A stretch of DNA of 64,000 nt from Candidatus Omnitrophota bacterium. GTDB lineage: Bacteria > Omnitrophota > Gorgyraeia > Zapsychrales > Zapsychraceae. The stretch spans positions 196,876-260,875 of the forward strand of contig JAJDCB010000030.1 in NCBI GenBank assembly GCA_029261065.1. The letters run 5' to 3'. Position 1 is the first letter of the stretch. Each line of letters opens with the position of its first letter. The notes under the pieces are model-generated. The model saw only the letters and a program-made list of their open reading frames with translations, was not told the DNA's origin and ran no database searches. Shown piece after piece: positions 4,476 to 26,107 of the stretch. A program made the translations under genes and the position numbers.

Positions 4476-6185
4476 ATGAATAAATTTAAAGTATGCGCAA
4501 TTGGCGTCTTGCTCGTAATATTTTCTCTATCTTGTGTTTTTTTCCTTGATCGGATGTTCGCCGCCTCCCAAAGCCCTCTCTGGCTTGATGAACATTATGG
4601 GTTAAAACGTTCGACCCGTTATCCTAGTTATGGAGAACTCATTGTTCGTGGTGCCCAGTCCCAAGGAAGTGCCGCCCCGCTAGATTTTCTTATTATTAAA
4701 AGTATTGATAAGATGAAAACATCTCTTAATTGGTTGGGATTAAGACCGCATGTTTATTATCGTTTATTCGCTAACCTTGTAACCGTTTTTAGTGGGCTGC
4801 TTATTTTTATTTTGTTTCTAAAAGAGGTTTATCGGGAAAAAGAACACCTCTGGCTAAGGTATGTTCAGCTGCTCCTACTGATACTTGGCATCATGTCTTA
4901 TTATTATGCCCCCGTTATTCATCATTATGCGGCTGAGATGCGACCATATGCTTTGTGGAGTTCTCTTTGGTTTATTGTTCTTGGTTTAACATTATTGAGA
5001 GTGGCATGGATGCCGTATATCTTCGTTACTCTCATTTTATTATCCTTTAGCGCCACAGCTTCTATTTTTCAGATGGGGGCCTTGGGTATTTGTTATTTTT
5101 TTCTTAGCGCATCTTCAAATCGAAAACAAAGTCTTGTTGAGATAGTCAAAGTTTTTGGTTTACCAATTTTCATTGCACTGTATTACTGCTTACAAGTTCA
5201 ACAGTTTGATCACCCAGCTGAAAGCAATACCTGGAATAATTTTTTCACCTTTTGGAGTCATAAAGCTTATTTGCTTCCTTTATTGATTATGGTTACAGGG
5301 TTTTGTTTATTTCAGAAAAAGAGTAAGTCGTTGGCGATTGCACCTGCAAGTGTTGTATTGTTAACTCTTATGGGCCCCTTAATTTTCTTCATTACAAGAT
5401 TAAAGGGCGTCTTTTTAGCGGAAAGGCATTACATTTATTATGATCATATTCTGCCAATAACGATATTGACACTTGTTGTTGTATTTCCAATAATTATTGA
5501 GCGTATTAATAGTAAAGTTTGGCAAAAGGGAGTCGTTATTGGGTTAGTTCTTATTGCAATAATAGTCACTTTTCGTCCTGCGGTGAATAAGCGCTTTAAG
5601 GCTAGTGTTATTAATGGTTTGTATTTGTTGAAAGATGCTTCTTTGATTAAACAGACATCTCTTGATAAAAAGTTTACGGTTCCTTATTGGGATTCCGATA
5701 AACTAATTTGGGAGGCGAAAGATTTTTCAAGGGCGTCTCAGCATATAATAGGTCAGGCCGTTTGGTTTTTTGATGAGAAGAATCCAAGAATTGCATTGGT
5801 TCATGAAGTGGGTGATGATAAGATAAATCAACAGTCTTTAATTGAGATCGTTAAGCAGCACTATTCTACGGGAGAATTAAAGGTAACTGTTCCCTATCTG
5901 GATGGCGAAATCCATGGGGATCTAGAAATGTTTTATAAAGATGGTTCGTATAAAGCTTTGGCTCAGTATGTTAAAGGCCAACAGCATGGTTTGACGCGTA
6001 AATATTATAAAAATGGTAAGCTTCAAGCTGAAGGGGCGTTTGTTGCAGGTAAAACACAAGGAAAGTCTCTTTTTTATTATGAAAATGGGAGTGTCCAACG
6101 TGAAGATCATTTTGAAAAAGGGCAGTTGCTACAACGAAAACAATTTAATCAAGATGGTCAATTAATCTCAGAAAAAAAGTTCTAA
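4476..6185 (+). CDS. polytopic membrane protein with C-terminal MORN/YwqK-type repeats
   Basis: ~10 predicted TM segments, then YxxGxxxxxxxYxxGxxxG repeats in the last ~90 aa. Confidence 0.6.
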   Translation: MNKFKVCAIGVLLVIFSLSCVFFLDRMFAASQSPLWLDEHYGLKRSTRYPSYGELIVRGAQSQGSAAPLDFLIIKSIDKMKTSLNWLGLRPHVYYRLFANLVTVFSGLLIFILFLKEVYREKEHLWLRYVQLLLLILGIMSYYYAPVIHHYAAEMRPYALWSSLWFIVLGLTLLRVAWMPYIFVTLILLSFSATASIFQMGALGICYFFLSASSNRKQSLVEIVKVFGLPIFIALYYCLQVQQFDHPAESNTWNNFFTFWSHKAYLLPLLIMVTGFCLFQKKSKSLAIAPASVVLLTLMGPLIFFITRLKGVFLAERHYIYYDHILPITILTLVVVFPIIIERINSKVWQKGVVIGLVLIAIIVTFRPAVNKRFKASVINGLYLLKDASLIKQTSLDKKFTVPYWDSDKLIWEAKDFSRASQHIIGQAVWFFDEKNPRIALVHEVGDDKINQQSLIEIVKQHYSTGELKVTVPYLDGEIHGDLEMFYKDGSYKALAQYVKGQQHGLTRKYYKNGKLQAEGAFVAGKTQGKSLFYYENGSVQREDHFEKGQLLQRKQFNQDGQLISEKKF

Positions 6186-6188
6186 GGT

Positions 6189-7649
6189 ATGTATTATTTT
6201 AATCCATATGCTATTGGGCCGTTATTAACGGGAGTGATGTGTTTTGCTTTAGGGCAATATGTGCATCAGATGGATCGTGAAGATCGGACACGTCAGGCTT
6301 TTTTTGGTTTGAATGTGTTAGCGAGTCTTTGGTGTTTGAGTCAAGCGATGGTGTTAAGTGCTACAGATTTAACGTTAGCCAGCTTTTGGTCTCATGTTAT
6401 GTTCTCAGCCATCATCCTTATGCCTGTCAGCATGTTTCATTTGGCCAGTCATTGGTGTAAGAGATATCAACGACAAAAGCTTATTCGATGGGTGATAAAT
6501 TTTCAAGCCTTATGCCTTGTGATCTTAAGTTGGGGACCCGATTTTTTATCGGGATACACGCCATACTTTTTCGGTCTTTTTCCGCGAGCAGGTGCTTTGA
6601 TGTATTTAGTTGTTTTCTTTATGTTGTCTAATTTCACAATCAGTTTTTTAAACATTAATAAGTATCATTTTTCTCAAAAAAAATTAAAAAAAAGACAAGA
6701 AGCTCGTTTTGTGATGTTATCGTTCTTGATTCTTCTTTTAAGTTATTCGGATGTTTTTGTTAGTTATCAACAAAGTTTGTATCCTTTAGGTTATATTGTT
6801 CTCTTTGGATTTTCTTTAAGTATGTCATTGTTTCTTTTAAGAAAAAGTGTGGCTTTATTGCATGAGCGTGTAAGGAGTGTTGAGGAGCAAATGCAATTTA
6901 AATCTAATGAGGCATCTATAGTTTCTGAAGAACTGAAAGGCGTGCAGTTTCAGCTCTTGGAAGCTGGAAAAAAATCAGCATTAGTAAGTTTGAGTGCAGG
7001 AATCCTTCATCAAATTAGCCAACCTATTACAGCAATTTATGGGTTTATCAAATTTTTAAAAAAAGAGGTAAAAGAAGATCACGAGTTTTATAAGCCGATC
7101 CATCTGGTAGATGAGCAAACGATGTATTTAAAGCAGATGCTTGGAAATTTGATGGAGCTTGTGCAGCATAAAGATATAAAGAAGGAAGCTATTAATGTTA
7201 ATGAACCTGTAGAAAATGCTGTTAATTTATTAACGGATGAATTACGCATTGGACGGGTTAAGTGGGAGTTAGACCTAGCTGAGGATTTGCCTCAGATTTG
7301 TGCGGATAACATTAATCTTCAACAAATTTTCATGAACTTTATTATTAATGCCATTCAAGCCCTTGGAACGTTGCCCAAGGGGGAGGAGCGTCAGTTATTG
7401 GTGTCGAGTAAGGTTGATGAGGATAACAAATTTGTTGCAGTGTCTTTTCAAGATTCTGGTCCGGGGGTCAGTAAAGGAGAGGTGGAGCGGATATTTGAGC
7501 CGTTTTATTCTACGAAAGAAAAGGCTGTTGGGATTGGCTTAGCCCTTTGTCAGGATTTGGTTGAGGAGCATGGGGGGCAGATTTTGGTGGATTCAAGTGT
7601 TAAGCAGGGTGTTAGTTTTGTGGTGAAGTTGCCGGTGATTGGATCGTAA
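6189..7649 (+). CDS. sensor histidine kinase (membrane N-terminal domain, HisKA, HATPase_c)
   Basis: H-box LHQISQPITAIYGF; G-box region GIGLALCQDLVEEHGGQI; multi-TM N-terminus. Confidence 0.8.
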   Translation: MYYFNPYAIGPLLTGVMCFALGQYVHQMDREDRTRQAFFGLNVLASLWCLSQAMVLSATDLTLASFWSHVMFSAIILMPVSMFHLASHWCKRYQRQKLIRWVINFQALCLVILSWGPDFLSGYTPYFFGLFPRAGALMYLVVFFMLSNFTISFLNINKYHFSQKKLKKRQEARFVMLSFLILLLSYSDVFVSYQQSLYPLGYIVLFGFSLSMSLFLLRKSVALLHERVRSVEEQMQFKSNEASIVSEELKGVQFQLLEAGKKSALVSLSAGILHQISQPITAIYGFIKFLKKEVKEDHEFYKPIHLVDEQTMYLKQMLGNLMELVQHKDIKKEAINVNEPVENAVNLLTDELRIGRVKWELDLAEDLPQICADNINLQQIFMNFIINAIQALGTLPKGEERQLLVSSKVDEDNKFVAVSFQDSGPGVSKGEVERIFEPFYSTKEKAVGIGLALCQDLVEEHGGQILVDSSVKQGVSFVVKLPVIGS

Positions 7650-14747: not shown

Positions 14748-15767
14748 CTACACCACATGAGCCAACCCCGCATTAAGAAGCTCTTGATTAAGATACTTCC
14801 CTTTTTGTGCCACAATTTTGGCATCAGTTTCGTTCTTTAAATAAAAAACATCCACCAGGTAACGATCGTATTTATCGGTGGTGTAGGTTTTGTGGGTTTT
14901 GATGATGAGGGGAGAGGCGTTTTTAAGCTGTGCCTCTACAAAATTTTTGGCTTTGGCGCCTTTGGCAGATGACATCTCTGGGGTGTTGATGTGACGCAGG
15001 CGTAATCGTTGGCTGATGAAGGTGTTAAATCCGCAATCAATGATCGCGATTAAGGTATCGCCATCCACGACTCTTTGAAGATGGGCTTTGTAACAAAAAC
15101 GTTGATCGTCATCGCTGGTCACGCGATTTATTTTGGTTCCATTAACGTGAAGATAATCTTGATCCTTTAGGCGGATGCCTTTAAGGGGAGGCAGAGGTTT
15201 TAAAATTTTAAAACCGCAATCCACAAAGAGGGGCGCGTTCTTTGAAGGGATTTCAGGGACGCTTATCACTTGATAAGTGTTTAATTGGCCTCGGGTAAAA
15301 GCTAACGTTGGAGGATTTTGTGATATTTGATGAATGCGTTCACGTGTTTTGAGTGTTGTAATCTGCTGAGCTAATTCGTTAGAATTCCAATTGTTTTTTA
15401 GGGCGCGATTTTCTATCTGTAGTCTTTGTTGATCATCTTTGACGGTGAGTAAAAGCTTGTACTTGGTCCATTCCAATTCTGGCCGCGCGGCCAGTTTTGG
15501 GTAGGTTTGATAAAATTTAACCACCCGCCACAAGAGGCTCCCGCTACAATTTAAATCTTCCGCCAATCGTTCAATCACCGTCTTCCCGTATTCGGGCTTT
15601 GCCGCATTCTCCAAAATATGCTCTGAAATATATTGTCCGACACTCCAATAAGTCCCCACCGTTTCTTGTTTGATTAACCTCTCTAACCCCATCAACCGAT
15701 CCTTCACCCGCACCAACAATGTTGAATATTTAGAACCAAGTGCAATGACATTCTTTTTTTTAGGCAT
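14748..15767 (-). CDS. DUF1016 (YhcG N-terminal domain) fused to SNase-like (thermonuclease) domain
   Basis: N-terminus YWSVGQYI...YGKTVIERLAEDL...LWRVVKFYQTYP (DUF1016_N pattern); C-terminus VVDGDTLIAII...RLRLRHINTPE...YDRYLVDVF (SNase pattern). Confidence 0.6.
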   Translation of the reverse strand: MPKKKNVIALGSKYSTLLVRVKDRLMGLERLIKQETVGTYWSVGQYISEHILENAAKPEYGKTVIERLAEDLNCSGSLLWRVVKFYQTYPKLAARPELEWTKYKLLLTVKDDQQRLQIENRALKNNWNSNELAQQITTLKTRERIHQISQNPPTLAFTRGQLNTYQVISVPEIPSKNAPLFVDCGFKILKPLPPLKGIRLKDQDYLHVNGTKINRVTSDDDQRFCYKAHLQRVVDGDTLIAIIDCGFNTFISQRLRLRHINTPEMSSAKGAKAKNFVEAQLKNASPLIIKTHKTYTTDKYDRYLVDVFYLKNETDAKIVAQKGKYLNQELLNAGLAHVV

Positions 15768-19158: not shown

Positions 19159-19614
19159 ATGTCAAGCGCTATTGCCACCAACAAAAAAGCTTTTCGCGAT
19201 TTTTTCCTCTCTGATAAATGGGAATGCGGGATTGCCCTTTTAGGTGGTGAGGTTAAATCCATTCGAGCCGGGCATGTCAATTTTAAAGATACCTTTGCTC
19301 GCATCGATAAAGGCGAGATCTTTCTTTATAACCTTCATATTGAGCAATATAACGCTGCCAGCCACATGAATAAAGAGCCGGATCGCGTGCGTAAACTTTT
19401 GATGCATAAGAAAGAAATTAAGCGTCTTGAAGGTAAACTAAATCAGCAGGTGGGAACGCTCATTCCAACGAAGATTTATTTTAATAAGCGAGGCTTAATT
19501 AAGGTTGAGATTGCCTTGGGACGAGGAAAGAAGCTTTATGATAAGCGTGAAGCGATTAAGAAGCGGGATGTGGATCGCCAGATTGGGCGGGAGATGCGTA
19601 ATCGGCGGGGGTGA
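19159..19614 (+). CDS. smpB: SsrA-binding protein
   Basis: GIALLGGEVKSIR...YNLHIEQY...KIYFNKRG pattern typical of SmpB; 151 aa. Confidence 0.9.
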   Translation: MSSAIATNKKAFRDFFLSDKWECGIALLGGEVKSIRAGHVNFKDTFARIDKGEIFLYNLHIEQYNAASHMNKEPDRVRKLLMHKKEIKRLEGKLNQQVGTLIPTKIYFNKRGLIKVEIALGRGKKLYDKREAIKKRDVDRQIGREMRNRRG

Positions 19615-22126: not shown

Positions 22127-22542
22127 GGGGGTGACATGGTTTCGACTTGGGTTATCGGAGTTTGAGTGGCATGCGGAGGACGTCTGGTTGGCCTCCTAAA
22201 AAATCCAGGCACACAATAAACGCTAACGATGAAACGTTGACGTTTGCTAGCTTGACTAATTCAACAATGGACAGCGATGTTCCTGTTGAACCATCACTAG
22301 CAACAGCACCAGCCTTATCGGTCTAATTCACTGGTAAGCCCTCTTGTAGCAGGCCTGTGGGTTACAAGTGGAACAAGCAGGCTGGTCTTATAAATTTGCT
22401 TCATTTATAAGATAAGATTTAGAAGCTAGTTTCATTTACGTTTGTTTATTTAGAGAAGTGAAGCGAAATTAAAAATAAACTAAGCATGTAGAAGCTCTTA
22501 CAAAGGAACCAAAGGACCGGGGTTCGATTCCCCGCACCTCCA
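22127..22542 (+). ncRNA. ssrA: tmRNA (transfer-messenger RNA)
   Basis: 5' GGGGGTGACATGGTTTCGAC and 3' GGACCGGGGTTCGATTCCCCGCACCTCCA (T-arm + acceptor) match tmRNA ends; tag frame starts GCT AAC GAT GAA (ANDE...) at 22222, stop at 22324. Confidence 0.85.
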
Positions 22543-22683
22543 TTTAGTTGTAGTGCATCTCCACCCCATTGAGGTGCATAGGCTTATGATAGTATATTGT
22601 TTTAATTCTCGATTGGTGCCCATTTAGTGCCCAAAGTATCACATTTTTCTTGCATTCATTCTATTGACTATTATAATAAACCC

Positions 22684-22893
22684 ATGAGTAAGATTTTTAA
22701 TCCTTTAAAAGATGTAGGTCGATTGATTGAGCCATTTCCTGGCGAATGGGTCACATTATCTTCTGATAAAAAGCAAGTTGTTGGGCATTCAAAAAAAATG
22801 GAAACAGCATTAAATCAAGCTTACAAAAAAGGCGTTGAACATCCTTTCCTTATTAAATCTCCTGATGGTAACATCGCTGCAGTCATCTATTGA
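22684..22893 (+). CDS. small DUF5678-like protein (cassette 1, gene A)
   Basis: GEWVTLSSDKKQVVGHSKKMETALNQAYKKG...P.LIKSP fits the DUF5678 pattern (recalled from memory); 64% identical paralog at 23661. Confidence 0.6.
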   Translation: MSKIFNPLKDVGRLIEPFPGEWVTLSSDKKQVVGHSKKMETALNQAYKKGVEHPFLIKSPDGNIAAVIY

Positions 22894-23333
22894 GTTATAT
22901 CACTCTCCCATATACAGAATTAGTTATTCCGGCAAAAAACAATAGGCCAAGAAAGATTGTTCGTCGTCCATTATTAAATACAAAATTATTTTATGGTAAG
23001 GCAGAAACGATGTTTGATTTTTCATCTCTTGTAGACTCTGGTGCCGATTTTTGTATCTTTCCTGCAAAGTATGGATCGATACTCGGGTTGGATGTTAAAA
23101 AAGCTCAATCAATTATGACTTATGGCATTGGTGGCCAAGAGACGATATATTTTCATAAAGTTAAGATAGGTGTGTTTATTGGAAATGAGATTTGGAAATT
23201 TACAGTCAAAGCTGGATTTTCTTATAGAATGAATATAGAAGGAACAGGCTTGCTTGGTCGCAAAGGTTTTTTTGATCAATTTAAAGAAATTGTATTTAAT
23301 CAAAAGAAAAAGATGTTTCGTATAATGGAATAA
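22890..23333 (+). CDS. retropepsin-like aspartic protease (cassette 1, gene B)
   Basis: LVDSGADFCIFP (D-S-G-A catalytic motif), GIGG flap-like, GLLGRKGFF; TTG start overlapping gene A stop (TTGA). Confidence 0.65.
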   Translation: MSYITLPYTELVIPAKNNRPRKIVRRPLLNTKLFYGKAETMFDFSSLVDSGADFCIFPAKYGSILGLDVKKAQSIMTYGIGGQETIYFHKVKIGVFIGNEIWKFTVKAGFSYRMNIEGTGLLGRKGFFDQFKEIVFNQKKKMFRIME

Positions 23334-23460
23334 TTTAGTGCCCAAACGGTGCCCATCTTACACCAAAACAACGGTAACGAACCGTAACCAAATGTAAACA
23401 ACCGCATAGTTTAAATTAGTTGTATTCGACGACAATTTAGTTAATCGGTTGATATTTATG

Positions 23461-23500
23461 GGGTTACACCGACGGGGATTATCGATTCCCCGTACCTCCA
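23461..23500 (+). repeat. tmRNA 3'-end-like fragment (T-arm + acceptor half)
   Basis: GGGTTACACCGACGGGGATTATCGATTCCCCGTACCTCCA vs tmRNA GGACCGGGGTTCGATTCCCCGCACCTCCA; similarity continues ~45 nt downstream. Confidence 0.8.
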
Positions 23501-23660
23501 TTTAGTTGAAGTGCATATCCATCCTGTTGCGATGTATAGACTTATGATTTCATAAAGTATTAATTTTCAATTGGTGCCCATTTAGTGCCCAAAAGTTATA
23601 GTAATTTCAATATGATTTATAATTGCAAACATTATAGTTTTGTAATATGATAAATTAATT

Positions 23661-23870
23661 ATGAAAAAGAAATTTATTCCTGAAAAAGATATGGCAGACG
23701 TTATACTCCCCTTTGCAGGGCAATGGGTCACGTTGTCGTCGGATAAGACGAAGGTTTTGGGGCATTCTAAAAAGATGGAAACCGCTTTAAACCAAGCCTA
23801 CAAAAAGGGTGAGAGTACACCACATTTAATCAAATCTCCAGATTCCAGCACCTCAGTATTTATTTTTTGA
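23661..23870 (+). CDS. small DUF5678-like protein (cassette 2, gene A)
   Basis: paralog of 22684..22893 (GQWVTLSSDKTKVLGHSKKMETALNQAYKKG). Confidence 0.6.
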   Translation: MKKKFIPEKDMADVILPFAGQWVTLSSDKTKVLGHSKKMETALNQAYKKGESTPHLIKSPDSSTSVFIF

Positions 23871-24310
23871 AAACACATACTTTACAATACACAAAACTAT
23901 CAATCCCCTCTCAAGGAAAAGTTCCAAAAAAGGAATTATACTGTCCTCTTTTAGATACTTTTTTATTTAACAAGTCTATTCAAACTCATTTTTCATTCAA
24001 ATCCATTGTTGATTCTGGAGCCGATTTTTGTGTGTTTCCTGAAAAGTTTGGAAAGTTGATTGGATTAGATGTTAAAGCTGGTGATAAAGTTTTAACTTTT
24101 GGTGTTGGTGGTATTGAGACACTTTATTTTCATAAAATTCAGATAGGGGTACATATTAAAGGTGAACTTTGGAAATTAGATTGTAAAGCTGGCTTTTCTG
24201 CAAAGCTAAATCCAAAAGGAATTGGTCTGCTTGGACGGAAAGGATTTTTTGATCAATTTGCAGAGATTGCCTTTAATCAAAATAAAAAAATGTTCCGTAT
24301 TAAAGAATAA
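23867..24310 (+). CDS. retropepsin-like aspartic protease (cassette 2, gene B)
   Basis: IVDSGADFCVFP, GVGG, GLLGRKGFF; TTG start overlapping stop, same as cassette 1. Confidence 0.65.
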   Translation: MKTHTLQYTKLSIPSQGKVPKKELYCPLLDTFLFNKSIQTHFSFKSIVDSGADFCVFPEKFGKLIGLDVKAGDKVLTFGVGGIETLYFHKIQIGVHIKGELWKLDCKAGFSAKLNPKGIGLLGRKGFFDQFAEIAFNQNKKMFRIKE

Positions 24311-24438
24311 TGTAGTGCCCAAATGGTGCCCATCTTACACCAAAACAACGGAAAACAACCGTACTCAAATGTAAACAATCGCACAGTTTAAATTAGTTGT
24401 TTCCGACGATATTTTAGTTAATTTGTTGATATTAATGA

Positions 24439-24477
24439 GGTTACAGCGACGGGGCTTATCGATTCCCCGCACCTCCA
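24439..24477 (+). repeat. tmRNA 3'-end-like fragment (third copy)
   Basis: GGTTACAGCGACGGGGCTTATCGATTCCCCGCACCTCCA. Confidence 0.8.
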
Positions 24478-24675
24478 CTTTGATTCGCTCAAATGCTTTC
24501 GCGTTTGAGCTACGCAGAAGTAAATTCTTACTCAGATCTAAAAGTTTGAGCGAGGCGAGTGCTTCTACGAAGCTCCAACACGAAAGTATTGGAGCGTAGT
24601 AGAGCGCTGCAGTTCAAGATTATTAATTGAACGAAGCCTAAAAAATTCAAATGGTTAAAAAGTAAGGGTGAAAAA

Positions 24676-25245
24676 ATGATAAAGAAAAGTCTTCTGATTA
24701 TAATTTTACTCATGATGATATGTCCTCGCACATCAGCTGAAAGTGTGCGTGAGCGATTAAGAAAAGCTCGGATGCCTAAGGATAGTACCCATGAAAATGA
24801 GACACCTAAAAAAGTAAAACAAAAGACTACTTCTCAAGAAAGTTTATTTGGAAAACCTTTCAACCCAAGTAAGATCGAATTTAGCCCTTATTATGCAGGG
24901 CAATTATTTTTTACCGAAATTAACGAAAAAGATCTGTCATCAAGGACTGTTAGTATTATCACCCTTATTGGTGCCCATAAAGATACATTCGAGGAGGAGA
25001 AAATTGCTAGTGAGAATCAGGTTTTCCAAAAATCTAATTCTAATACGGGGAATAAGGGTGGTGGCCTGACTTTAGTTAATAAAGGAAGAATAGTACCTAT
25101 TGAGGGAGATTGGGACGTGAAGGTATCTTTAGGAAAAGTTGAAAATAATAAGATATCAGGGCATATATTGATTACCGTACCTGAGCATAATACGAAGTTA
25201 AACAGAAATTTTATCGCAAATATAAAGCCTCGTCGAAAAGAATAG
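24676..25245 (+). CDS. secreted hypothetical protein (cassette 3 cargo)
   Basis: signal peptide then AESVRERLRKAR; ends before the third copy of the right-boundary motif. Confidence 0.55.
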   Translation: MIKKSLLIIILLMMICPRTSAESVRERLRKARMPKDSTHENETPKKVKQKTTSQESLFGKPFNPSKIEFSPYYAGQLFFTEINEKDLSSRTVSIITLIGAHKDTFEEEKIASENQVFQKSNSNTGNKGGGLTLVNKGRIVPIEGDWDVKVSLGKVENNKISGHILITVPEHNTKLNRNFIANIKPRRKE

Positions 25246-25582
25246 AAAACTGTTTTAGTGCCCCAAGGGTGCCCATCTTGCATCAAAACAACGGCATTTT
25301 AGTGTAACCAAATGTAAGCAACTGCGAAACGCCTCTCCTACATAATTCTTCCCCCCATAAGGCAGTCCCAAATAATTTTGATAGACGATTATCTAACATA
25401 ATAATCGTCAAACCACAGGTCATACTAAAAAGTATGGGCCTTGGGAGCTAAAGTTGTATATAATGTTTCAAGATAAAGTCAAAGACTATCAATTTGAAAA
25501 ACATTTAAAGTCCTATGCAGAAACGGCTTTTTTAAGAAAAAGATTAGTTTCAGGAATAAAAGGGCGAAGGAGTGTTAAGGTC

Positions 25583-26107
25583 ATGAAAAAATTATTATTA
25601 TGTGTATTAATTTTTAGTCTCACGACACCCACATTTGCTGAATCTATCAAAGAAAGGTTGAGAAAGACGCGAGAAAAAGAAAAGATGGGACTGGAAAAAA
25701 ATACTACAAGTAATAACTCTAAATTGAGAAGTAAACAGAAAAAACAAGAAACGTATGATCCTTATAAGAAAGAGGATGATGCGGTTATTCAAGAATTGCA
25801 AAAATCAGTTGATAAATCTTTAACGGATATGAAAAGAAGTGAAAAAGGTATGGTTAACGGTTTTGGCGAAACGACAGGCAATATTATTAGTAACACGGAA
25901 GAAATTCTAAAAGGAAAAAGTCTGGAAGATATTAATAGAATCAATGCAAAAATGGAACGACAATTTGAAGAAATGAAGAAGAAAGATAAAAAAGAGCGAA
26001 ATGAAAGAACTGAAAAGATGCTAGAGGATATGCGCAAAGATTCTAAACAGTGGCAGGAGCAGAATAAAGGAAAAAAGATGTCAGTTGAGAAAATATATGG
26101 CAAATAA
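25583..26107 (+). CDS. secreted Lys/Glu-rich protein, N-terminal paralog of 24676
   Basis: MKKLLLCVLIFSLTTPTFAESIKERLRKTREKEK; RBS AAGGAG; start moved from 25454 to ATG 25583. Confidence 0.5.
   Translation: MKKLLLCVLIFSLTTPTFAESIKERLRKTREKEKMGLEKNTTSNNSKLRSKQKKQETYDPYKKEDDAVIQELQKSVDKSLTDMKRSEKGMVNGFGETTGNIISNTEEILKGKSLEDINRINAKMERQFEEMKKKDKKERNERTEKMLEDMRKDSKQWQEQNKGKKMSVEKIYGK

Follow-up and report, generated by a model that had tools for sequence, protein, structure and literature searches.

The 64,000-nucleotide stretch of Candidatus Omnitrophota DNA analysed here (contig JAJDCB010000030.1, positions 196,876 to 260,875; hereafter the window) carries two copies of a two-gene cassette directly 3' of ssrA, the gene for transfer-messenger RNA (tmRNA). 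In each copy, a small protein of the DUF5678 family (A) is followed by a retropepsin-like aspartic protease (B). The obligate, translationally coupled partnership of DUF5678 with a retropepsin is a new finding. We tentatively propose that the pair is a selfish or mobile two-gene module of the toxin-antitoxin-like or abortive-defence kind, in which the protease would be the effector and the DUF5678 protein its neutraliser. On our analysis this reading is quite possible, and we hold it with some reserve.

The two cassettes of the window

The cassettes consist of four open reading frames (ORFs) on the forward strand, read from the ORF list and the sequence. In cassette 1, A1 (22684-22893) encodes a DUF5678-family protein of 69 amino acids (aa), and B1 (22890-23333) encodes a retropepsin-like aspartic protease of 147 aa from a TTG start. 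In cassette 2, A2 (23661-23870) and B2 (23867-24310) repeat this arrangement with the same lengths, B2 again starting at TTG. The last two bases of the TTG start of B are the first two of the TGA stop of A, giving a TTGA overlap in both copies. Ungapped BLASTP alignment gives 64% identity between A1 and A2 (E 1e-31) and 58% between B1 and B2 (E 2e-64). The motif G[EQ]WVTLSSDK..V[VL]GHSKKMETALNQAYKKG is present in A1 and A2, and VDSGADFC, G[IV]GG and GLLGRKGFFDQF in B1 and B2. Coordinates, lengths, TTG starts, overlap and motifs are all as the initial annotation of this DNA had them, and both identities lie within its estimate of about 55-65%. Each copy, at about 0.7 kb, is complete in itself: a sigma-70-type promoter of its own, then A, then B.

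Pairing and translational coupling of A and B

We compared two sets of loci, 80 genome loci collected via B and 80 metagenome loci collected via A, both scored with hidden Markov models (HMMs). A lies directly upstream of B in 76 of the 80 genome loci that have room upstream. In two of the four misses (L080 and L084), a divergent A-like ORF of 67 aa with the signature G-x-W-V-A ... V-P was seen by eye. Among the metagenome loci, A precedes all 69 B genes. The A-B pair is essentially obligate; the co-occurrence survey that had been suggested finds it conserved across genomes, and not as an isolated ORF pair of one lineage.

The junction between the two genes is compact in most of the 155 A-B pairs. 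A 4-nt NTGA overlap is found in 97 of them (63%), a longer overlap in 23, and a gap of 2-20 nt in the other 35. The NTGA overlap takes the form ATGA in bacteria of the Candidate Phyla Radiation (CPR) and TTGA in all 30 members of the subfamily of the window, in which the TTG is the sole nearby start. A Shine-Dalgarno-like motif precedes B in only 27 of the 155 pairs (17%). Coupled translation had been suggested from the two window copies, and the comparison, with overlap in 120 of the 155 pairs and so few such motifs, supports it.

The promoter of cassette 1 is predicted at 22650-22677 on the forward strand, with a -35 element TTGCAT (22650-22655), a 16-nt spacer and a -10 element TATAAT (22672-22677), and ends 6 nt before the ATG of A1. 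That of cassette 2 is predicted at 23623-23651 on the same strand (TTGCAA, 17-nt spacer, TATGAT) and ends 9 nt before the ATG of A2. The same sigma-70-type layout is present in 10 other loci of the subfamily. There, the -35 element is TTGCAA or TTGACC, the spacer 16-17 nt, and the -10 element CATAAT, TATAAT or TATATT, with the promoter ending 5-10 nt before the ATG of A (6-9 nt in most). A promoter that ends so close to the start codon implies a leaderless or nearly leaderless A mRNA. Read in the same way, the gene layout implies that B would be made by re-initiation after A, so that B should not exceed A.

Two possible signs of interaction between A and B were discarded. The long homologue P0034, a candidate natural A-B fusion, turned out to be a mis-called start only. 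The length of the C-terminal tail of A shows no positive relation to that of the N-terminal extension of B (Spearman -0.34).

Protein B is a retropepsin-like protease

Taken singly, the two window proteases score 19.3 bits (B1) and 16.2 bits (B2) against the Pfam family Asp_protease_2 (PF13650), both below its gathering cut-off of 24.3. NCBIfam and PHROGs searches with the window proteins gave no further assignment. At the family level, 67 of 84 aligned B homologues match Asp_protease_2 at E<=0.01, with a best value of 6.1e-7. The AlphaFold2 (AF2) model of the B monomer shows a retropepsin fold with a predicted local distance difference test (pLDDT) score of 93.2, and an extra N-terminal beta-hairpin region of about 40 residues. 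As judged from the family-level HMM matches and the predicted structure, B is a retropepsin-like clan AA protein, in agreement with the initial annotation.

Each B chain carries one catalytic Asp-Ser-Gly-Ala, plus a Gly-x-Gly-Gly flap and an LLGR motif. The catalytic motif LVDSGAD spans residues 47-53. In the 84 homologues, D49, S50, G51 and D53 are invariant and A52 is at least 90% conserved; P27 and H89 are also invariant. The flap of B1 is G78-I-G-G81, and its C-terminal motif is G120-LLGRKGFF. Residues G79, G120, L122, G123 and G126 are at least 90% conserved in the same homologues, and likewise the LLGRxGFFDxF block.

A profile built from the B homologues retrieves 664 clusters at 90% identity. 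Run exhaustively against 1.84 billion representatives, the profile matches 4769 proteins at E<=1e-3, of which 1597 reach E<=1e-10; the best 150 of the 4769 are stand-alone proteins of about 100-160 aa. The roughly 1600 clusters of B proteases (50% identity, E<=1e-10) come chiefly from CPR/Patescibacteria, Omnitrophota and Planctomycetota. As a family, B forms a new branch among the retropepsin-like proteases of bacteria.

Protein A belongs to the DUF5678 family

A similar situation is found for the partner. A1 and A2 score 19.3 and 14.8 bits against DUF5678 (PF18929), both below the cut-off of 23.2, and 20 of 21 aligned A relatives match the family at E<=0.01 (best E 1.5e-12). The A profile retrieves 3292 clusters, nearly all of them annotated PF18929. 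By these HMM matches, A is assigned to DUF5678 at the family level, and the earlier assignment stands on that footing. The model of A (pLDDT 86.9) is a small alpha-beta-beta-alpha-beta unit. Between the two window copies, the ratio of nonsynonymous to synonymous divergence (dN/dS) is 0.08 for A and 0.34 for B, which indicates purifying selection on both. We found no publication on DUF5678 or its function.

Two tandem units at the 3' end of the tmRNA gene

The tmRNA gene, the proposed integration target, lies at 22127-22545 on the forward strand (Rfam RF00023, 179.8 bits, full length), and SmpB is encoded upstream of it at 19159-19614. A 19-nt core sequence from its end occurs three times in the 64 kb, none being expected by chance, and all three copies are on the forward strand. 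Copy 1, TCGATTCCCCGCACCTCCA (22524-22542), is the true 3' end of the tmRNA from mid T-loop to discriminator, an attL-like junction. Copy 2, TCGATTCCCCGTACCTCCA (23482-23500), stands at the junction between units 1 and 2 and is attP-like, with an element arm on both sides. Copy 3, again TCGATTCCCCGCACCTCCA (24459-24477), is the attR-like end of the array, with unique chromosomal sequence beyond. The cores delimit two tandem units of 958 and 977 bp, each with one cassette. The left flanks of cores 2 and 3 are alike and unlike the true tmRNA; the right flanks of cores 1 and 2 are alike, and unique DNA follows core 3. This flank pattern fits an attL / attP-like / attR arrangement.

The non-coding parts of the units share further features, all on the forward strand. 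Upstream of cassette 1, a pair of heptamers, GTGCCCA-N4-GTGCCCA (22616-22633), is found with a 14-nt direct repeat, ATTTAGTGCCCAAA, at 22622-22635. After B1, a conserved non-coding arm (23333-23481) opens with the same repeat ATTTAGTGCCCAAA (23333-23346) and a heptamer pair (23338-23355), followed by about 125 nt up to the core. The heptamer pair upstream of cassette 2 (23574-23591) again comes with ATTTAGTGCCCAAA, at 23580-23593, and the conserved arm after B2 (24310-24458) holds ATGTAGTGCCCAAA, which has one mismatch (24310-24323), and a heptamer pair at 24315-24332. Of the 11 GTGCCCA sites in the window, where 3.5 are expected, eight form these four 11-bp-spaced pairs around the two cassettes. 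The heptamers resemble binding sites of a recombinase or regulator whose gene is not nearby, and the arms may be read as attachment-site-like DNA common to two related mini-elements.

The heptamer pairs are direct repeats, all on the forward strand, and single GTGCCCA sites also occur at 24971 and 25269. A backbone from which the cassette was removed would hold three GTGCCCA heptamers in a row.

Two other interpretations of the non-coding DNA were rejected. Tested for a structured RNA, the conserved 170-nt arm folds well in copy 1 (z score -3.3) and not in copy 2 (+0.25), and the two folds differ; an Rfam search of 22540-24700 at permissive thresholds gave no real match. As to integron-like attC sites, there is no intI, and no RYYYAAC/GTTRRRY core sites or shared hairpin were found on reading the sequence.

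The word 'duplicated', used of the two copies in the initial annotation, is too simple. The coding DNA of the two cassettes is 65% identical, and synonymous divergence is saturated, with a proportion of synonymous differences (pS) of 0.75 for A and 0.57 for B. For the non-coding flanks, identity reaches 84-88%, and 23334-23503 matches the stretch after B2 at 87.6%; the flanks are more alike than the coding DNA. Meanwhile, B1 groups with proteins of the loci L089, L086 and L001 (61-66% identity), and B2 with that of L002 (62%; closest relatives 62-64%). Both are closer to proteins of other organisms than to each other (58%), so the copies are not sisters. On these sequence comparisons, the units did not arise by recent duplication; gene conversion after an old duplication is possible.

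The local tandem might still have arisen without site-specific integration, by plain segmental duplication of the tmRNA-adjacent segment, divergence in place, and homogenisation of the flanks by gene conversion or selection. In its favour, the units are collinear from end to end, both cassettes occupy the identical backbone position between the ATTTAGTGCCCAAA repeats, no integrase is encoded nearby (in the units or 20 other scanned ORFs), and the GC content of the units is like that of the surroundings. We nevertheless consider this origin doubtful. Neutral divergence would give the reverse of the observed pattern of coding DNA at 65% and flanks at 84-88%. B1 (65-66%) and B2 (62-64%) have closer relatives elsewhere than in each other. 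The repeat boundary lies in the tmRNA T-loop, which is a classical integration position, and the junctions fit attL, attP and attR.

Two observations on the tmRNA gene itself may be added. ARAGORN made no call on it despite the 179.8 bits from Rfam. Its tag-region frame has no early stop, and from the usual resume alanine it reads ANDETLTFASLTNSTMDSDVPVEPSLATAPALSV*, the C-terminal part of a 59-aa ORF at 22147-22326; the tag may be unusually long, or the resume codon atypical.

Genomic context and apparent mobility across genomes

Outside the window, the surroundings of the pair vary from locus to locus. Its 417 nearest neighbours fall into 351 clusters, and the 146 immediate neighbours into 123 Pfam families, each of which occurs in three loci at most. 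Most of these neighbours are housekeeping genes, such as those for GroEL, aminoacyl-tRNA synthetases and GyrB, and HicB accounts for 2 of the 146. Among these 417 nearest and 146 immediate neighbours, we found neither a conserved third gene beside the pair nor an associated recombinase. The closest relatives of A1 (75-84% identity) adjoin PilZ, cupin or ParE genes. What the closest relatives share with the window is coding DNA only, from about 11 nt before the ATG through the stop of B. In several loci, a second copy of the pair lies within 6 kb. In 11 of 71 metagenome loci and 4 of 84 genome loci, A is intact and the B next to it carries a frameshift or a truncation.

Direct repeats often flank the pair. 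The measure was the longest exact repeat common to two segments, 220 nt preceding A and 200 nt following B. This repeat reaches 15 nt or more in 12 of 118 pairs, compared with 7 of 2154 spans of equal length placed at random in those loci (p 8e-12) and 10 of 409 gene-boundary-matched units of similar size (2.4%; p 8e-4). Such repeats are about four times commoner around the pair than around the matched control gene units. The downstream repeat starts between -5 and +103 nt from the stop of B (at most 40 nt in 9 of the 11 listed cases), the upstream one ends 25-165 nt before A, and the spacing of the repeats is 660-850 bp. In these loci, locus-specific repeats of 15-60 nt bracket units of 660-850 bp that hold A and B alone.

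Five examples come from unrelated CPR genomes, with locus-specific repeats of 19-52 nt. In L028, a 23-nt repeat (5728-5750 and 6390-6412) corresponds to the start of the downstream gene, whose ATG overlaps the TGA of B. L036 has a 52-nt repeat (5687-5738 and 6532-6583), and L138 repeats of 31 and 29 nt, the 31-nt pair lying at 2088-2118 and 2811-2841. In L034 the repeat is found at 709-735 and 1404-1430, and in L065 at 5620-5638 and 6468-6486. The mobile look of the cassette, already remarked on in the window, is borne out by its variable neighbours, the coding-only similarity among relatives, the repeats of the ssrA end and the enriched flanking repeats.

These repeats raise the idea that the cassette moves itself, with A and/or B promoting insertion of the promoter-A-B unit and leaving long target duplications of variable length. 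The bracketing of A-B-only units, enriched over the controls, and the lack of a recombinase associated with the pair are in line with it. We find it extremely improbable. B has all the hallmarks of a protease and none of a nucleic-acid enzyme; long repeats occur in only about 10% of loci, and in 2.4% of control gene units too; and their variable length speaks against a dedicated transposase. The flanking repeats may instead reflect recombination by host functions or by a helper element. Highly unlikely, in our view, is the wider proposal of a new class of selfish cassette with an aspartic-protease effector, whose promoter-A-B unit of about 0.7 kb would spread by a novel insertion route with target duplications of 14-60 nt, possibly aided by its own proteins, and would have colonised attachment-site-like mini-islands at the tmRNA gene.

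A general association with tRNA or tmRNA genes was considered and dropped. A tRNA gene lies within 500 bp in about 9 of 80 genome loci, roughly what chance would give in small genomes. None of these tRNA-near loci has tRNA-end repeats bracketing the pair, and the ssrA setting is specific to the window genome. In the Omnitrophota locus L006, a tRNA-Pro gene (5299-5373) lies 83 nt after B, and 18 nt of its 3' end are repeated some 100 nt further on, downstream of the gene (5476-5493). This is an integration scar, and the pair lies outside it.

Further observations concern two related loci. In L001, a 909-bp contig with the closest relative of B1, TTTGT-rich repeats are present upstream of the pair (1-70), and tandem ATCACAA(A) repeats in the opposite orientation downstream of it (820-909). 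In the GC-rich relative L002 (1863-2714), a third ORF of more than 284 aa overlaps the stop of B with its start; this ORF is not conserved elsewhere.

Proposed function of the pair

The proposed module is suggested by the operon anatomy, the obligate pairing, the variable contexts, the non-sister copies, the island carriage, the flanking repeats and the PADLOC precedent described below. In this mechanism, B would be a homodimeric aspartic protease in the cytoplasm. The mRNA of A would be leaderless, and B would be made only when ribosomes re-initiate behind A, hence B would never rise above A. A would bind B and hold it inactive, as a stoichiometric neutraliser kept in excess by the gene layout. 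Once A is lost, through cassette loss, stress or infection, B would cleave host proteins and growth would stop. In the window, two tandem mini-islands that lack an integrase may have inserted into the tmRNA gene at its T-loop, and the two diverged cassettes would be their fixed cargo. The non-coding parts of these islands would serve as attachment sites, with the core repeat and the GTGCCCA heptamer pairs on both arms.

Several observations weigh against this proposal. A scan of 20 other ORFs of the window gave no integrase or recombinase, nor do the units, which hold A and B only, encode one. The non-coding flanks are found in this genome only, and the attachment-site reading rests on two copies. 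About 90% of loci have no long flanking repeat, and the broken B genes could be metagenome assembly errors. The model of A shows no recognisable antitoxin or DNA-binding fold (ribbon-helix-helix, RHH; helix-turn-helix, HTH; AbrB; Phd). A is more conserved than B, and an antitoxin is usually not the more conserved partner. No defence family is among the 25 most frequent neighbour families, HicB being the sole family of the toxin-antitoxin type; a match to B was found once in 2.9 million viral contigs; and none of the 69 A homologues matches the PDC-M08 and PDC-M52 models, nor does the A of the window match any PADLOC model. The likeness to toxin-antitoxin or defence modules drawn in the initial annotation is therefore kept in part: anatomy and mobile behaviour fit, and the defence island and an antitoxin fold in A are missing. 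Its statement that no function has been described for the pair still holds, as neither DUF5678 nor retropepsin-type toxin-antitoxin pairs are the subject of any publication we found.

Some of the same evidence would suit a non-toxic regulatory pair. B would then be a housekeeping or conditional processing protease, and A its substrate, pro-peptide-like chaperone, adaptor or activator, the pair serving physiology, particularly in CPR bacteria. The strong purifying selection on A (dN/dS 0.08), the wide occurrence of the pair in small CPR genomes beside housekeeping genes (GroEL, aminoacyl-tRNA synthetases, GyrB) and the lack of an antitoxin-like fold in A are consistent with such a role. In addition, the characterised bacterial retropepsin-like enzymes APRc, RimB and Rlo are processing or regulatory proteases, not toxins. 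We regard this as unlikely, since the neighbourhoods are not conserved, close relatives are found in unrelated surroundings, several copies that are not sisters are present in some genomes, and B is occasionally degraded beside an intact A. The flanking direct repeats and the ssrA-island location also point to horizontal mobility.

The toxin-antitoxin-like module may also be set against an abortive-infection or phage-defence system proper, not plain addiction, in which a phage cue would free B from A and B would cleave host or phage proteins. The B homologues match the retropepsin-like second genes of two PADLOC candidates: 56 of the 84 match PDC-M08B (best E 5.7e-7) and 38 match PDC-M52B (best E 3.8e-9), and the B proteins of the window match both weakly. 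The two-gene cassette of PDC-M08 occurs embedded in known defence systems, and in Sulfolobales, type III CRISPR loci come with small retropepsin proteins (PMC3973734). Carriage of the cassette as cargo of genomic islets at ssrA would also agree with defence. We find this quite unlikely. A matches no PADLOC model, so the pair is not PDC-M08 or PDC-M52 itself, and the PADLOC candidates are themselves only putative. The neighbour families speak against it as well, with no defence family among the 25 most frequent and HicB in 2 of 146. The defence-island context that had been put forward for checking was not seen among the 146 immediate neighbours, and phage carriage is almost nil.

Other genes of the window

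On the reverse strand, about 7 kb upstream of ssrA, the ORF at 14748-15767 encodes a DUF1016 N-terminal domain joined to a staphylococcal-nuclease-like domain. Its product may be a nuclease of a defence system or of a mobile element. Just past the array, the ORFs at 24676-25245 and 25454-26107 each contain a hydrophobic signal-peptide-like stretch followed by ES(V/I)(R/K)ERLRK(A/T)R. The stretch covers residues 1-31 of the first and about 43-74 of the second, and neither has a Pfam match. These two ORFs may encode paralogous secreted proteins.

Significance and comparison with known systems

Bacterial retropepsin-like proteases are, to our knowledge, few and poorly understood, and we know of none with a dedicated protein partner. 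If the pair is a toxin-antitoxin or abortive-defence module, aspartic proteases would become a new toxin activity. DUF5678 would acquire a function, perhaps as the first retropepsin inhibitor that is a natural protein, and many 'hypothetical' genes of uncultivated bacteria would receive an annotation. The sub-kilobase, integrase-less units at ssrA, together with the repeat-bracketed cassettes elsewhere, offer a tractable case for the movement of minimal cassettes.

Among the bacterial retropepsins, APRc (RC1339) of Rickettsia is described as a membrane-anchored, autoprocessed surface protease of an intracellular pathogen (PMC4140852). In contrast, B is predicted to be soluble, has 147 aa and an extra N-terminal beta-hairpin region, and is encoded behind a DUF5678 gene in a mobile two-gene cassette. 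The sequences are only 15-18% identical. APRc, RimB and the Rlo proteins of P. aeruginosa are processing or regulatory proteases, and their settings differ from that of B. Unlike the retroviral proteases of human immunodeficiency virus 1 (HIV-1), feline immunodeficiency virus (FIV) and Rous sarcoma virus (RSV) and the retroviral-protease-like (RVP) domains of Ddi1, B lies outside any polyprotein or retroelement, as a free-standing bacterial gene with a small partner.

An integrase defines an autonomous island and is by definition absent from cis-mobilisable elements. The ssrA islands of Dehalococcoides are tandem, have 20-bp repeat boundaries and include integrase-less cis-mobilisable members; their length is many kilobases, and a serine-recombinase integration module is present in 16 of them (PMC3146451). 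The units of the window resemble these genomic islands (ssrA-GIs) in lying directly 3' of ssrA, in tandem, with ssrA-end repeats of about 20 bp that start in the T-loop. They differ in being shorter than 1 kb, in holding the A-B cassette only and in having no integration module nearby.

The PADLOC candidates PDC-M08 and PDC-M52 likewise have a retropepsin-like second gene of similar size, and PDC-M08 is recorded as a two-gene cassette. Their first genes are unrelated to DUF5678, and they were picked for being embedded in known defence systems. We found no publication on PDC-M08.

Compared with type II toxin-antitoxin systems, A differs in having no known antitoxin or DNA-binding fold. The window proteins match no toxin-antitoxin family in Pfam, NCBIfam or PADLOC, and in the literature we found no aspartic protease serving as the toxin of such a system. 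The likeness lies in the two small co-directional genes with a stop/start overlap, the small protein coming first behind its own promoter. It extends to the variable context, the non-sister copies per genome, the island carriage and the occasional decay of the second gene.

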